This document shows, piece by piece, positions 1,418 through 7,420 of a stretch of DNA of 64,000 bases. The notes beneath the pieces were generated by a model that saw nothing but the letters and a program-made list of their open reading frames with translations, did no database searches and was not told where the DNA came from. This stretch comes from Promethearchaeota archaeon. Its GTDB lineage: Archaea > Asgardarchaeota > Lokiarchaeia > Sigyniarchaeales > SOKP01. The position numbers and the translations under genes were made by a program. The stretch is from contig SHMW01000009.1 of NCBI GenBank assembly GCA_008080735.1, positions 6,883 to 70,882 of the forward strand. The letters run 5' to 3'. The first letter of the stretch is position 1; the number at the start of each line of letters is the position of its first letter.

Positions 1418-1939
1418 TTATTTGATATATTCCGTGATTTCATCTAAATCTTTTCGCGGTGGTGGTTTGGGCTCATCCCTTCTTAAATATCCAAACGGTA
1501 ATATTGTTAGAAGAAAATTATCCTTTTCAATCCCTATTATCTGCTTTGCTTTTTCTCTATCCATACTTCCAAGCCAGCAAGTACCTATTCCTAAGCTCCA
1601 CGCCTCAAGCATCATATTCATAGAAGCTAAGGTTGTATCTTGAATATACCAGTTAGGATTTTCATGAACTTCCCCGACTATCGCGATAGCAACCGGAGCT
1701 TCCCGAACAAATTTACCATAGATCGCTATTTTTGATAACTCCTCAATCATTTCCTTATTTTTTATAACTATAAATTTCCATGCTTGTCTATTGGATGCTG
1801 AAGGTGCCCATTGTCCTGCTTCCAAAATCATCTCTATTTCTTCTTCGGGGATCATCTCATCCTTAAAACATCGTATCGTTCTCCTATCCTTGATAAATTT
1901 CAATAATTCTTCTGGTTTAATCATTTTCTCAAAACCCAT
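1418..1939 (-). CDS. Nitroreductase family protein
   Basis: RRTIRCF, APSASNRQAW, LGIGTCWLG FMN-binding motifs. Confidence 0.92.
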   Translation of the reverse strand: MGFEKMIKPEELLKFIKDRRTIRCFKDEMIPEEEIEMILEAGQWAPSASNRQAWKFIVIKNKEMIEELSKIAIYGKFVREAPVAIAIVGEVHENPNWYIQDTTLASMNMMLEAWSLGIGTCWLGSMDREKAKQIIGIEKDNFLLTILPFGYLRRDEPKPPPRKDLDEITEYIK

Positions 1940-2002: not shown

Positions 2003-3247
2003 CTAAAAGTTCTGATCCTCACCATTTATATAATATTCCGCTTCGAGATTTGGATATAACTTCTTTTTTCTTCCAGACTTTTCAGATTCAATTAACTGCA
2101 AATCCTTCAATTTATTGATATGGTACGATACCGTCTTATGATCAACATTTAATATTTTAGCGATTTCATTATTATAGGTTCCAGGATTTTCCTCAATCAT
2201 TTCTAATATTTTCAACGTCAATTCACTTTTTTGGAGTTTTAGATCAATATTTGAGATTGGGTTTTTTTGATAATAAGGAAAATATACTAGATATCTCCCT
2301 ACTCTCTTCTTTCCTATTACTTTATAGGTTTCTAATATATCCAAATGCCAGGCTAGATTTCCGGCAGAAAGATCTGTCTCCCGTAATAATTCATTGAAAT
2401 GAATTCCCGGGTCTGCTAATACGAGGTCGATTAACATGCTCCTATTTTCATTTTCCAAGACATCTTCCATTGATAATTGATGAGCACCCTTATCTATCGG
2501 AACTGTACGGGTTTTTAAAAATTGAATATAATCTTTCTTAGATAAGGTAATAACTAATGCCGCAATCCCAATTATGCTTATTATTGCAATTATCCAAATC
2601 CATTCATAAGTGATCGGATTTACTTGGAATAAAGTAATATAGTAATCGGTTTCTGATTCGATGTCAAGTATTTGGGTTTCTAAATAACTTTCACTAGACG
2701 ATTTATTAAATTTTTCTTCGGTTGGTAATATTTCCCAAGAATCACCACCTTCATAAAATTGTGCTATTTTATAATTTCTATGAGGATCTAATCCAAATTT
2801 TTGAACTTTTAGGTATTGGATTGTTAGGTTTTGTACCGTTGAATTCGCTCGAATTTGTAAAACATAGTTATATTGATATTGATATTGAGAATTACCACTC
2901 GAAGGTCCTTTTGGTTTTCTTTGATAACCAAAGCCTCCCAAATCAGTTTCTGATGAAAAATTCAGAATAAGGGGATTATTATTTGCAACTTTTATAAAGG
3001 TTTCTCGGTTGGTAATTTGTTTATCATATTCAATAGAACCATTTAAAGAAACATTAGTAGAGAGTCCAAATTGAATGGAATTATTAAAATAATACCTAAT
3101 AGATTTGTTTTTATTCAAATTATAGTCTTTTTGGTATCCAGGTACTACCTCTCCTATGGAATAATAAATTAAGGAATTAAATTCAAACACGATTAAAATT
3201 AAGAAAAATACAAAAATTAATGCTTTTCTTTTTTTTAAATATTTCAA
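2003..3247 (-). CDS. Membrane-anchored transcription regulator: signal/TM, beta-rich ectodomain, TM, tandem winged-helix (HVO_0163/ArsR-like)
   Basis: N-terminal hydrophobic segment; second TM WIWIIAIISIIGIAALVI; C-terminal NENRSMLI..PGIHFNEL..LAWHLDIL and NPGTYNNEIA..TVSYHINKL wHTH pair. Confidence 0.8.
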   Translation of the reverse strand: MKYLKKRKALIFVFFLILIVFEFNSLIYYSIGEVVPGYQKDYNLNKNKSIRYYFNNSIQFGLSTNVSLNGSIEYDKQITNRETFIKVANNNPLILNFSSETDLGGFGYQRKPKGPSSGNSQYQYQYNYVLQIRANSTVQNLTIQYLKVQKFGLDPHRNYKIAQFYEGGDSWEILPTEEKFNKSSSESYLETQILDIESETDYYITLFQVNPITYEWIWIIAIISIIGIAALVITLSKKDYIQFLKTRTVPIDKGAHQLSMEDVLENENRSMLIDLVLADPGIHFNELLRETDLSAGNLAWHLDILETYKVIGKKRVGRYLVYFPYYQKNPISNIDLKLQKSELTLKILEMIEENPGTYNNEIAKILNVDHKTVSYHINKLKDLQLIESEKSGRKKKLYPNLEAEYYINGEDQNF

Positions 3248-3344
3248 GGTTTCCTTTAGATCGTTTTGATATTTATTTTGATGAAATATATATAAAAAAA
3301 CAAAAAAAAGTTAATTGGGTATTTTAGATAAGGTCTTTAGATAA

Positions 3345-4016
3345 TTATCTCTTTTTTTTATAGTATAAGTAACCGACAACACCTATTAATGCAACTGCCC
3401 CAACTGAGGCGACTATTATTATTAATGTATAATCCGTTTCTGGTATCAAAACCGTCCACACTGAAAAGTGATCTGTAGTAGCTGTTAGGTACCCTTCTGA
3501 ATCGACTTGAGTCGGTACTGTTTCCCATTCTCCATTATCTCCGTTGTAATATGCCCATTCTCCGTTTCGATTTTGATTATTGGCCTTAATTCTCAATCTT
3601 GCTTGTATCTCAGAACAGTTACAACTGAGATTTACAGCAAAACCTTCTTGATATTGGAAACGATTTCGATTTCTAACTGTATATCTGTTGCCCAAAAGTA
3701 ATCCCAATTCTTCTTGCTGCTCTGTGCATGTCATATTCATCTCCATATCTCCAGAAGCATCTGTAACTTCAATAATAAAGTCTTTAACTCCGATTTTCCC
3801 TTCCCATTGAAACAGTCCTGAAATATTAAATTGATTAAGCTGATTTCTCACTCTTATTCGGGTCGTAGCTCCATTTTCCTCAGTTTCACCAGGAGCAGCT
3901 TCGTAATTCCGAGAAGTTAGTGGCTCTTGTGCTGCTACTATGAATGGAGAACTGATCCATGCAAAAATCAAAAAAGTTGCGAATGTCGCTAATAAAATTT
4001 TGTTTGTTTTTCTCAT
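3345..4016 (-). CDS. Secreted single-pass surface protein with GPS/GAIN-like HFS motif just before the TM
   Basis: Start moved to ATG 4016 (MRKTNKILL.. signal peptide); WAYYN..WETVPT..LTATTDHFSVWTVL followed by a TM and KKKR stop-transfer tail. Confidence 0.75.
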   Translation of the reverse strand: MRKTNKILLATFATFLIFAWISSPFIVAAQEPLTSRNYEAAPGETEENGATTRIRVRNQLNQFNISGLFQWEGKIGVKDFIIEVTDASGDMEMNMTCTEQQEELGLLLGNRYTVRNRNRFQYQEGFAVNLSCNCSEIQARLRIKANNQNRNGEWAYYNGDNGEWETVPTQVDSEGYLTATTDHFSVWTVLIPETDYTLIIIVASVGAVALIGVVGYLYYKKKR

Positions 4017-4074
4017 TTTTTTAACCTTAATTTGTTCTATTAAACAAAAGTATAATCTTCCTTTTAAGAAATGA

Positions 4075-4089
4075 GGGATAACTCTTCCC
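4075..4089. promoter_or_regulatory. Candidate operator palindrome GGGA-N7-TCCC
   Basis: gggataactcttccc lies just upstream of a TATA-like TTAAAA on the minus strand, ahead of the 4016 start. Confidence 0.3.
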
Positions 4090-4145
4090 ATAAATGACAT
4101 TTAAAATTTATCAGACTTTAATACATTAAATCATTTATATTTCAC

Positions 4146-6056: not shown

Positions 6057-6145
6057 TTTATAATAGAAGAGAAATAGATTAATAACTAATGATCTTTTGG
6101 AATCAATTAATCTTATTTATATAGCTATTGATTTATGAGTGTATT

Positions 6146-7420
6146 ATGGAAAATAATAAAAAACAAATTATACTTGTTTTTATACTTATTTTGCTAATAA
6201 CGAGCAATATATTTGTTCTTATTCCTTTCGATTTTAATAATAGAGATTTAGATAAAGATAGATACAACCCAAAAGGAATAAGAATAACTACTTTCCAAAA
6301 TCTCAATGGAACGATATTGGTTTCATGGTTTACAGAAGACATTTCTCAAAATCCTATTTTCCAATATTCTTCAGATCTGAGTTTTTCCGATAATAATGCC
6401 ATTAGCGCTAGTTATGTCAATATCGATGGGACATTTACTTATAGGGTAATATTAAACGATCTCATCCCAAATTCAACTTATTATTATAGAATTAAATCTG
6501 ATAACCAAAATTATGGCGAACCAAGAATGTTTAAATCACTTCCAGTTGTAGATTCAGCAAATTTTAGTTTTATTGTTTATGGAGATTCTAGGACACTTAG
6601 AGCACCACGTTCAGAGCTAACCAATAGAATTTTAGAATTTAGCTTAATTAGAAATTTAGATTTTTCTATTCATTCGGGTGATATCGTCGAGGATGGGAGA
6701 ATTCAATCTCAATGGGATAATTATTTCATAGATACTGAAATTTTATATTCTAAAATACCTGGTATTTTTGTCGAAGGGAATCATGAAGGGGGATCAAGTA
6801 CACTCATGTACGAAAATCTTTTCCCGGGAATCATAAATTCTCAAAGGTATTATTCGTTCATATTTGGAAATTGTGGTTTTATTATCTTAAATTCAAACGG
6901 ATATTATGAAAGTTCTATAGAAGAAGAGCAAAAAACTTGGTTGAATAAAACTCTCTATGAGTATTCTCAAGAAAATGAACATACTTTTGTATTCTTACAT
7001 CACCCACTCCTACATAATCGAACAAAATCATATCTCAGAGAAGATTGGCCTCCATTATTCGAACGATATAATGTGACTTGTGTGTTTTGTGGACATAATC
7101 ATAATTATGAACGTTCCTATCCAATAATAAACCAAACAGTCATCGATGAGAAAACCTCTCTTATTGAATATAATGCTACCGAAAAATATAATTACAGAAG
7201 TCTTTCTAATCCTATTTATATTGTATCTGGAGGTGCGGGTGCCCCACTTTACGATCCTTATGAATATGATTTTATAGCGTATACCAATAGCACCTATCAT
7301 TTCTGCTTGATTGATCTTGAACGGCGTAATGCAGACACATCTATCTCTATAGAGGTTTGGGCTATGCTTGAATTAGGAGCTAATCTCACGCTTATAGACA
7401 ATTTCACAATTATTAATTAA
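6146..7420 (+). CDS. Secreted/membrane-anchored purple acid phosphatase-like metallophosphoesterase (FN3 + MPP)
   Basis: N-terminal TM; FN3-like LIPNSTYYYRI; YGDSR, HSGDIV, GNHE, HHP, GHNHNYER metal motifs. Confidence 0.88.
   Translation: MENNKKQIILVFILILLITSNIFVLIPFDFNNRDLDKDRYNPKGIRITTFQNLNGTILVSWFTEDISQNPIFQYSSDLSFSDNNAISASYVNIDGTFTYRVILNDLIPNSTYYYRIKSDNQNYGEPRMFKSLPVVDSANFSFIVYGDSRTLRAPRSELTNRILEFSLIRNLDFSIHSGDIVEDGRIQSQWDNYFIDTEILYSKIPGIFVEGNHEGGSSTLMYENLFPGIINSQRYYSFIFGNCGFIILNSNGYYESSIEEEQKTWLNKTLYEYSQENEHTFVFLHHPLLHNRTKSYLREDWPPLFERYNVTCVFCGHNHNYERSYPIINQTVIDEKTSLIEYNATEKYNYRSLSNPIYIVSGGAGAPLYDPYEYDFIAYTNSTYHFCLIDLERRNADTSISIEVWAMLELGANLTLIDNFTIIN

Follow-up and report, generated by a model that had tools for sequence, protein, structure and literature searches.

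A minimal MAIN-like surface protein encoded beside a membrane-tethered transcription factor with a paralogous ectodomain: a candidate surface-to-DNA module in a Lokiarchaeial genome

In this study, a 64,000-nucleotide stretch of the genome of Promethearchaeota archaeon (Lokiarchaeia; contig SHMW01000009.1), hereafter called the window, was analyzed with a focus on two consecutive genes of its minus strand, designated A and B. Gene A encodes a small membrane protein whose modeled ectodomain shows the fold of the GAIN_B domain, with a His-Phe-Ser (HFS) motif in the turn at which such domains are cleaved, and gene B encodes a membrane-tethered transcription factor whose ectodomain is a paralogue of that of A devoid of the motif. 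We propose that A and B may form a two-gene module that conveys events at the cell surface to DNA, and we estimate the probability of the full circuit set out below at roughly 0.5. The relevant features are listed here with their window coordinates and strand.

3345..4016, minus strand: gene A, encoding a 223-amino-acid (aa) type-I membrane protein with a single MAIN/GAIN_B-like domain (open reading frame (ORF) and translation).
3930..4016, minus strand: signal peptide of A, approximately residues 1-29, ending ...FIVAA/QE (read from the sequence; the slash marks the presumed cleavage point).
3435..3902, minus strand: ectodomain of A, approximately residues 39-194, a GAIN_B/ZU5-like beta-sandwich (VIA-align and Foldseek).
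3462..3470, minus strand: His183-Phe184-Ser185 of A, the predicted N-O acyl-shift self-cleavage site between F184 and S185 (invariance and structural alignment).
3360..3431, minus strand: transmembrane (TM) helix of A, approximately residues 196-219, with KKKR and the stop codon behind it (model helix 196-222 and alignment).
2003..3247, minus strand: gene B, encoding a 414-aa membrane-tethered transcription factor with a TTG start (ORF and translation).
2609..3148, minus strand: ectodomain of B, approximately residues 34-213, a paralogue of the A domain with ...TDYYITLFQ opposite ...TDHFSVWTVL of A (hhalign and hidden Markov model (HMM)).
2540..2608, minus strand: TM helix of B, approximately residues 214-236 (model helix 215-236; the basic stretch SKKDY... 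follows C-terminally).
2450..2539, minus strand: cytoplasmic juxtamembrane segment of B, residues 237-266, containing ...RTRTVPI(D/E)KGAHxLS... (alignment).
2051..2449, minus strand: two winged helices of B, PF24266 at residues 267-324 and HTH_24 at residues 342-387 plus wing (Pfam).
4072..4091, minus strand: 20-bp box, family consensus TTGGGAAAAATTATTCCTCA, a candidate operator, which includes GGGA-N7-TCCC (4075-4089) (phylogenetic footprint).
4058..4071, minus strand: TATA-like stretch of the putative gene A promoter, directly after the box (aligns with TTTTTATAT of relatives).
3248..3344, minus strand: A-B spacer of 97 nucleotides (nt), with an oligo-T run at 3294-3309, a TATA-like stretch at 3284-3293, and no copy of the box (sequence).

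As had been described in the initial annotation, A proved to be a 223-aa protein consisting of a signal peptide, a beta-rich ectodomain, a TM helix, and a 4-residue tail, on which the ORF, its translation, and the alignment of relatives agree. Its homologues number 70, are approximately 226 aa long, and all carry an Asgard or metagenome label. In the structural model of A (predicted local distance difference test score, pLDDT, 70.9 overall and 82-93 across residues 130-190), the signal peptide appears as an N-terminal helix (residues 3-21), and its K-rich n-region and hydrophobic core are conserved in the alignment. The C-terminal end of the ectodomain reads ...TTDHF/SVWTVLIPE, after which come the TM helix, beginning 3 residues past the last strand, and KKKR; a hydrophobic stretch followed by basic residues is found at this place in all relatives. 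The gene starts at the ATG at 4016, and the same start methionine (MRK/MKK) is present in relatives. A longer ORF from the ATG at 4100 (251 aa), the reading used for JGI homologue P0003, is unlikely to be real, because relatives start at MRK/MKK and the extension (4017-4100) crosses the conserved box and the TATA-like stretch.

To place the fold of A, its model was compared with known structures. Foldseek returned GAIN domains (BAI3, CD97, BAI2, GPR110, and CELSR1) together with the FIIND of NLRP1 as the top matches. With VIA-align, the model matched the BAI3 GAIN domain at a Z score of 11.2 (142 residues aligned, root-mean-square deviation 3.8), followed by CD97 (10.3), CELSR1 (10.0), the NLRP1 FIIND (9.8), and CARD8 (8.9). 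An unbiased VIA search against 48,161 PDB representatives reproduced this ranking, with BAI3 at Z 10.8-11.2 across both analyses; FIIND structures scored 8-9.8 and ankyrin ZU5 domains 7.5-7.8. Twelve of the 14 chains found at Z of at least 8 in the unbiased search were GAIN domains, FIINDs, or axonemal look-alikes, and the other two were a GH98 beta-sandwich (Z 8.0-8.3) with fewer aligned residues. The comparison with GAIN and ZU5 structures for which the initial annotation had called thus identified GAIN_B and FIIND/ZU5 as the best folds. The axonemal look-alikes are chains of doublet microtubules from Leishmania, Chlamydomonas, and bull sperm (9y6s_9f, 8glv_AE, and 9fqr_Hn), which score between GAIN and FIIND (Z 8.8-9.6).

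The HFS motif of A is situated in the turn between strands 176-181 and 186-192, the last two of the model. The alignments to GAIN chains that are cleaved in the deposited structures all stop at model residue 184, the Phe of the motif; the aligned ranges are 224-382 in GPR56 (5kvm_A ends at 382, and GPR56 is cut between 382 and 383; PMC10607210), 421-566 in GPR110, 84-249 in GPR97, and 670-837 in latrophilin-1, and latrophilin-3 (end 854) and GPR126 (end 827) were aligned as well. Because the alignments stop at residue 184 where the cleaved chains end, Phe184 was assigned to the P1 position and Ser185 to that of the nucleophile. H183, F184, S185, and W187 do not vary among 36 A sequences, and (D/N/T)HFSxW is present in nearly all complete sequences among 150 distant representatives retrieved with the A profile.

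The initial description of A as GAIN-like with an HFS site therefore stood as regards the fold and the position of the cleavage turn, but A is not a full GAIN domain, because it lacks the helical GAIN_A subdomain, matches neither GPS (PF01825) nor GAIN (PF16489) of Pfam, and has a single TM helix. The two Pfam families were absent from A and 32 family members at E values up to 10, and Pfam/NCBIfam searches assigned A to no family, DUF5803 and LPXTG_anchor being far under threshold. A match to Nucleoporin2 appeared in only 1 of 32 A-family members (E 0.3) and is not a real sequence match, and the A profile gave only chance matches to PDB chain sequences (E at least 0.1). The GAIN domains of adhesion G-protein-coupled receptors (GPCRs) and polycystin-1 are nonetheless the best structural match of A (Z 10-11): the turn in which the cut is predicted is the same, F184 being superposed on the P1 Leu, and in both cases the final strand is held immediately outside the membrane. 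They differ from A in possessing GAIN_A, the GPS cysteine pattern, and a body of 7 or 11 TM helices after the domain, in place of which A has one helix and a 4-residue tail; furthermore, adhesion GPCRs signal via a G protein, whereas any output of A would pass through a separate DNA-binding protein. The ZU5/FIIND domains of NLRP1, CARD8, and PIDD and the autopeptidase of Nup98 have an HF/S or SF/S chemistry like that predicted for A, but they are cytosolic and eukaryotic, carry a UPA domain after the cut, and score below GAIN_B.

GAIN_B-like domains termed MAIN (Microbial Autoproteolysis INducing) have recently been reported to be widespread in bacteria and archaea (Brogan and Rudner, May 2026, bioRxiv 10.64898/2026.05.12.724683). 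Edman sequencing placed the cut within a conserved HFS motif, between its F and its S, and an S-to-A substitution abolishes the cleavage; nearly all bacterial MAIN domains tested did cleave, and the cleaved fragments remain associated, as shown for bacterial members (10.64898/2026.05.12.724683). By analogy with these bacterial domains, A would cleave itself between F184 and S185. A framing of such a domain in a prokaryote as unprecedented cannot be upheld, as HF/S self-cleaving GAIN-like domains are already described from both bacteria and archaea (10.64898/2026.05.12.724683). The usual MAIN protein consists of a signal peptide, a large adhesion or enzyme cargo, the MAIN domain, and a wall anchor, with a mean mass of 158 kDa, and it was stated explicitly that no signaling mechanism has so far been associated with the anchored fragment (10.64898/2026.05.12.724683).

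In common with MAIN proteins such as B. subtilis YfkN and the S. agalactiae IgA-Fc receptor, A has a GAIN_B-like sandwich, an H-hydrophobic-S/T turn (HFS) before the last strand, a signal peptide for secretion, and a surface anchor directly after the domain. Adhesion or enzyme cargo, which is typical of MAIN proteins although not defining, is missing from A, whose mature ectodomain is wholly MAIN-like, and accordingly the protein has 223 aa against the mean of 158 kDa. In addition, A is anchored by a TM helix, MAIN proteins by sortase or SLH domains, and A is paired with a regulator bearing a dead copy of the domain; in the proteins P0245 and P0202 described below, the HFS-bearing domain is fused to the regulator itself. 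An exhaustive search with the A-ectodomain profile yielded 169 representatives only, at the weak end of which were SLH-anchored bacterial adhesins of 900-1500 residues with HF(T/S)K(F/Y)AV motifs; these adhesins carry Big_2, Flg_new, Cadherin-like, and SLH domains, and one matches Pfam GPS. Judged by its sequence, A is thus a detectable but minimal MAIN member, in which the domain stands alone on a TM anchor. While the kind of self-cleaving domain is already known, what appears to be new is a cargo-less MAIN domain coupled to a DNA-binding output, in two genes or in one chain. In the portions of the MAIN preprint available to us and in the papers returned by our literature searches, neither the cargo-less form nor the pairing with a regulator appears, and no paper linking MAIN/GAIN-like domains to a prokaryotic transcription factor was found among the latter.

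The gene downstream of A in the same orientation, B, was found to encode an ectodomain, a TM helix, and a cytoplasmic tandem winged helix, for which the ORF and Pfam matches bear out the earlier description. B has a hydrophobic signal peptide at its N-terminus, a model of pLDDT 81, and 510 homologues of approximately 417 aa. Since the basic residues come after the TM helix, the DNA-binding part is assigned to the cytoplasm. Both winged-helix domains exceed the Pfam thresholds, namely PF24266 (HTH_HVO_0163_N; E 7e-16, 58.5 bits against a cut-off of 31) and PF13412 (HTH_24; E 1.4e-15, 57 bits against a cut-off of 21.9), and structures of the ArsR/MarR type match this region at Z 10-12; the recognition helices are invariant in the family. 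In the juxtamembrane segment, which is also kept in paralogues with other ectodomains, L244, R247, K253, G254, H256, and L258 are invariant, and the model is of low confidence across 247-255.

The similarity of the two ectodomains, which had been noticed by eye, was confirmed by profile methods. Pairwise BLASTP between A and B within the genome was weak and marginal (E 0.021). The profile-profile comparison (hhalign) aligned 160 columns collinearly with a probability of 94% and E 3e-8 to 6.5e-8, and the A-ectodomain HMM detected B at E 1.3e-12. Likewise, B matched A orthologues of other genomes in BLASTP (E 1e-6 to 3e-9), and the A profile matched the neighboring B gene in nine genomes (E 1e-9 to 2e-12). 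In the AlphaFold models, A and B share an identical strand order with one short helix in the middle of the domain. Given the homology to A and the same strand order, the B ectodomain would adopt the fold of A; when the whole B model served as the query, winged-helix structures took up the fold matches. As for the HFS motif, its absence from the regulator, which had been pointed out for the window, was found to be family-wide: no HxS motif occurs within the 90 residues that precede the cytoplasmic linker in any of 119 B-family members. A predicted complex of the A ectodomain (38-195) and the B ectodomain (34-213), run without controls, scored 0.00, a value that speaks neither for nor against contact. 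Besides these features, A contains an invariant N-x-T sequon, N94-M95-T96 (in MNMTCTEEQ, the region of residues 92-94 at window 3735-3743, minus strand), and several further sequons are conserved in both A and B ectodomains, e.g., N140-L-T142 in B; the conserved sequons suggest that A and B are N-glycosylated surface proteins.

The distribution of the pair was surveyed across Asgard genomes. Among 150 genomes, full-length A and B were present in 23/25 and 24/25, respectively, of the family to which the window belongs and in 2/2 of its sister family, and neither was found in full length outside those two families. Among 400 Asgard genomes, the B-type regulator was detected in three families of one order (119/134, 14/14, and 4/4) and in none of the other sampled families. 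In each of the 18 loci fetched from two families, the gene immediately after A was B, in the same orientation, and this arrangement was also seen in 4 further loci, the third family of the order included; the spacers between the two genes are 55-146 nt long in relatives. An A-like gene followed by a regulator was also found in the GC-rich locus L022. The synteny check proposed for the pair thus revealed A-B adjacency in every locus examined, in three families of one order.

Rarer relatives were found to join the two halves in one polypeptide. P0245 (locus L022; 481 aa; recovered from two samples) carries, after a signal peptide and a linker, an A-type domain (...NTSHFSTFTLL...), which is followed by a TM helix and then by a B-type tandem winged helix. 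Its ectodomain scores 87 bits with the A model against 20 with the B model, and a homologue search with this ectodomain returned only P0245 itself; its genome was absent from the 400 Asgard genomes, in which the best identity was 34%. On its GC-rich contig, P0245 is directly preceded by an HFS-bearing A-type protein, P0237; this A-like protein of L022 matches the A-family profile at only E 1e-23. P0202 (locus L021) likewise unites an A-type HFS domain with a B-type output in one chain, a TM helix lying between them; it is encoded on a 2.5-kb contig in an ORF that is open at the contig end, with a signal-peptide core seen upstream. From P0245 and P0202 it follows that a domain of the cleavable type does occur on a B-type output and that the order of A then regulator predates the disappearance of HFS from B of the Loki type. 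Tandem forms were also encountered: P0192, P0193, P0195, P0196, P0249, P0253, P0262, and P0267 contain 2-3 A-type domains, each with HFS, ahead of one C-terminal TM helix, and if all sites were cut, they would form chains of fragments joined non-covalently.

Upstream of A, the GGGA-N7-TCCC palindrome that had been noticed ahead of the TATA-like box was confirmed. Such a 4 + 4 pattern is trivial by itself, but it was shown to be part of a conserved 20-bp box, located 69-76 nt before the ATG in 16/17 family loci and followed 4-5 nt later by TTTTTATAT in relatives. The box carries 1.48 bits of information per position, compared with 0.29 in the upstream flank. Using a matrix built without the window's own site, the box of the window scored 28.6 bits and was the sole match of at least 24 bits in the 4.1-Mb genome, the next best being 23.2; the reversed-sequence control gave no match of at least 24 bits. 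The same layout is repeated upstream of the A-like gene of L022, where GGGAGAGGTGTACCCCAATCC is followed by CTTTTATAC. A search for a regulon in this genome found none, loose patterns being no commoner than in the reversed sequence and the matrix leading to the A promoter only. Scans for bacterial promoters and terminators and an inverted-repeat finder returned nothing useful for an archaeal promoter.

Our proposed circuit begins with A being exported and anchored by its C-terminal helix, whereupon its MAIN domain would cut itself at Phe184-Ser185. The outer fragment of 155 residues would then be held non-covalently on the last strand, SVWTVLIPE, which is fused to the membrane helix. At the cell surface, the uncleavable copy of the fold in B may meet the A ectodomain, and loss of the outer fragment of A, possibly by shear, envelope damage, or unfolding, would change the state of B. 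The tandem winged helix of B is the presumptive binder of the GGGAA...TTCCC box abutting the TATA of A, and B in its changed state may reset the transcription of A in one direction or the other. Because the box is unique to A in this genome, A would seem to be the sole target here, and the simplest circuit would be a loop of shedding and replacement or of surface integrity, in which the pair would act.

The proposed arrangement invites comparison with three known systems. The RsgI/SigI system of Clostridia similarly links a self-cutting, still-assembled outer domain (SEAL) across the membrane to the control of transcription, but it has a SEA-like fold and an anti-sigma factor freed by intramembrane proteolysis, and is bacterial and built as one chain. 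In Notch, a cleaved ectodomain is held non-covalently and its disturbance leads to a transcriptional output as well; there, however, the cuts are made not by the domain itself but by furin and then ADAM/gamma-secretase, the LNR/HD fold is unrelated, and the intracellular domain is a co-activator rather than a DNA-binding winged helix. ToxR/ToxS provides a single-pass membrane winged-helix regulator with a small adjoining membrane protein that may bind its outer domain, and ToxR-type regulators reach DNA while membrane-bound. Unlike A and B, ToxR and ToxS are not paralogous and have no self-cleavage motif, and the DNA-binding domain of ToxR is N-terminal, cytoplasmic, and of the OmpR type, a TM helix and a periplasmic domain at the C-terminus coming after it. 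B, in which the order is ectodomain, TM helix, and ArsR/MarR-like winged helices, is hence not a ToxR-like protein in its architecture, although it may work similarly.

Several observations weigh against the proposed circuit. An adhesion or enzyme cargo is present in nearly every MAIN protein described, but A carries none to which a force could be applied. Some true GAIN domains that retain an HL(S/T)-type motif are not cleaved, among them that of BAI3 (PMC10607210). As judged from the oligo-T run and the TATA-like stretch in the A-B spacer, a layout also seen in relatives, B probably has its own promoter, separate from that of A. Because a second B paralogue in the genome lacks an adjoining A, regulators of this type can function with no A beside them. 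B-type paralogues have nearly identical recognition helices, yet there is one strong box in the genome, which fits poorly with a simple picture of one box per regulator. Finally, the conserved adjacency is in part a matter of shared ancestry, since the canonical pair is confined to genomes of a single order.

Of the alternative explanations, the one that survives best, although we regard it as unlikely, holds that A and B are tandem duplicates, adjacent by descent and independent in function, A being a small self-cleaving surface protein with a role of its own, B an ordinary one-component membrane regulator whose ectodomain senses something else, and another factor binding the box. The separate promoter-like signals and T-run between the genes, the second B paralogue without an A neighbor, the B-type modules with unrelated ectodomains and no A-like partner, and the confinement of canonical pairs to one order are all in line with it, but it sits uneasily with the recurrence of the pair and box layout in the GC-rich lineage, whose A-like protein is so distant from the family profile (E 1e-23), with the single chains joining an HFS domain to a B-type output, and with a box that is unique to the A promoter while B is the only regulator traveling with A.

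An improbable alternative is that A serves as a stable, uncleaved accessory subunit of B in the manner of ToxS and ToxR, the HFS motif being structural, so that A would bind the B ectodomain, stabilize it or tune its response to a ligand, and never be shed. A turn kept for structural reasons alone should be free to change, as has happened in B, which shares the fold and has lost all three residues; in contrast, His, Phe, and Ser are invariant in the A family and in its distant relatives, and nearly all bacterial MAIN domains tested were cleaved (10.64898/2026.05.12.724683). The paralogous ectodomains and strict adjacency of the genes, the lack of cargo for force in A, and the uncleaved HL(S/T)-type motif of BAI3 (PMC10607210) would nevertheless suit such a subunit.

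Quite improbable is a Notch- or RsgI-like route in which B, or one of the fused forms, becomes accessible to a membrane protease once the outer part of A is lost, and the winged helices, freed at the juxtamembrane segment, act as a soluble factor. This segment, which separates the first winged helix from the TM helix, is strongly conserved yet poorly modeled (247-255), and a precedent is offered by RsgI anti-sigma factors, whose self-cleaving SEAL domains have been proposed to set off intramembrane proteolysis (10.64898/2026.05.12.724683). Against this route, no protease gene is conserved adjoining the pair, whose neighbors are a nitroreductase and, on the opposite strand, an M24 peptidase, and, there being no nuclear envelope, DNA would lie within reach of an unreleased regulator approximately 25 residues away from the membrane.

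The output module of B has a wider distribution in these genomes. The second B-type regulator of the same genome lies on contig C49 (L020:2809-4068, plus strand) and has 419 aa, with an ectodomain that scores 93 bits to the B-ectodomain model and has no HFS; no A-type gene adjoins it, and upstream of it are two small beta-rich ORFs (185 and 117 aa) with no Pfam match. The module of PF24266 and HTH_24 also occurs on membrane proteins of 236-257 aa and 480-808 aa with unrelated ectodomains, as in L023:457-2724 (minus strand), L030:889-2982 (plus strand), L031:921-3347 (plus strand), and L037:688-1461 (plus strand); one of these ectodomains contains SBBP beta-propeller repeats, and some genomes have up to 8 copies of the module. 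This set appears to form a family of membrane-tethered transcription factors that is specific to the order. As the module stands behind other ectodomains, B can be regarded as one member of an order-specific class of regulators with the outer domain as a variable input.

Meanwhile, the conserved neighbors of the pair are a nitroreductase gene and an M24 peptidase gene. The former follows B on the same strand in 12/19 loci (window 1418-1939, minus strand) and has no copy of the box, and the fused P0202 is also followed by a nitroreductase gene (L021:1318-1824); the M24 peptidase gene sits beyond the nitroreductase gene. These neighbors look like ordinary synteny. In addition, a gene for a purple-acid-phosphatase-like metallophosphoesterase was found within 2-3 kb of the pair both in the window (6128-7420, plus strand) and in L022 (977-2509, plus strand). 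Metallophos domains are a common cargo of MAIN proteins in those tables of the preprint that were available (10.64898/2026.05.12.724683), and the proximity of this gene to the pair may be a coincidence.

GAIN domains are a hallmark of animal adhesion GPCRs, and their microbial counterparts, reported in 2026, have been described only as devices for the release of surface cargo (10.64898/2026.05.12.724683). If the coupling of A and B is not real, what is left is a MAIN protein of minimal form and a family of membrane-tethered regulators restricted to this archaeal lineage. We would only tentatively regard the pair as the first prokaryotic GAIN-like self-cleaving domain wired to transmembrane signaling, its functions split in one Asgard order between a cleavable sensor, A, and B, a dead copy fused to a DNA-binding output, and combined in a single chain in rarer relatives. 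If true, archaea would share with the adhesion GPCRs of animals the principle of signaling inward by shedding a non-covalently held ectodomain, and would tie it directly to transcription. A, B, and one 20-bp site provide a small testable system for the question of whether self-cleaving ectodomains signal through a prokaryotic membrane, situated in the archaeal group closest to eukaryotes.

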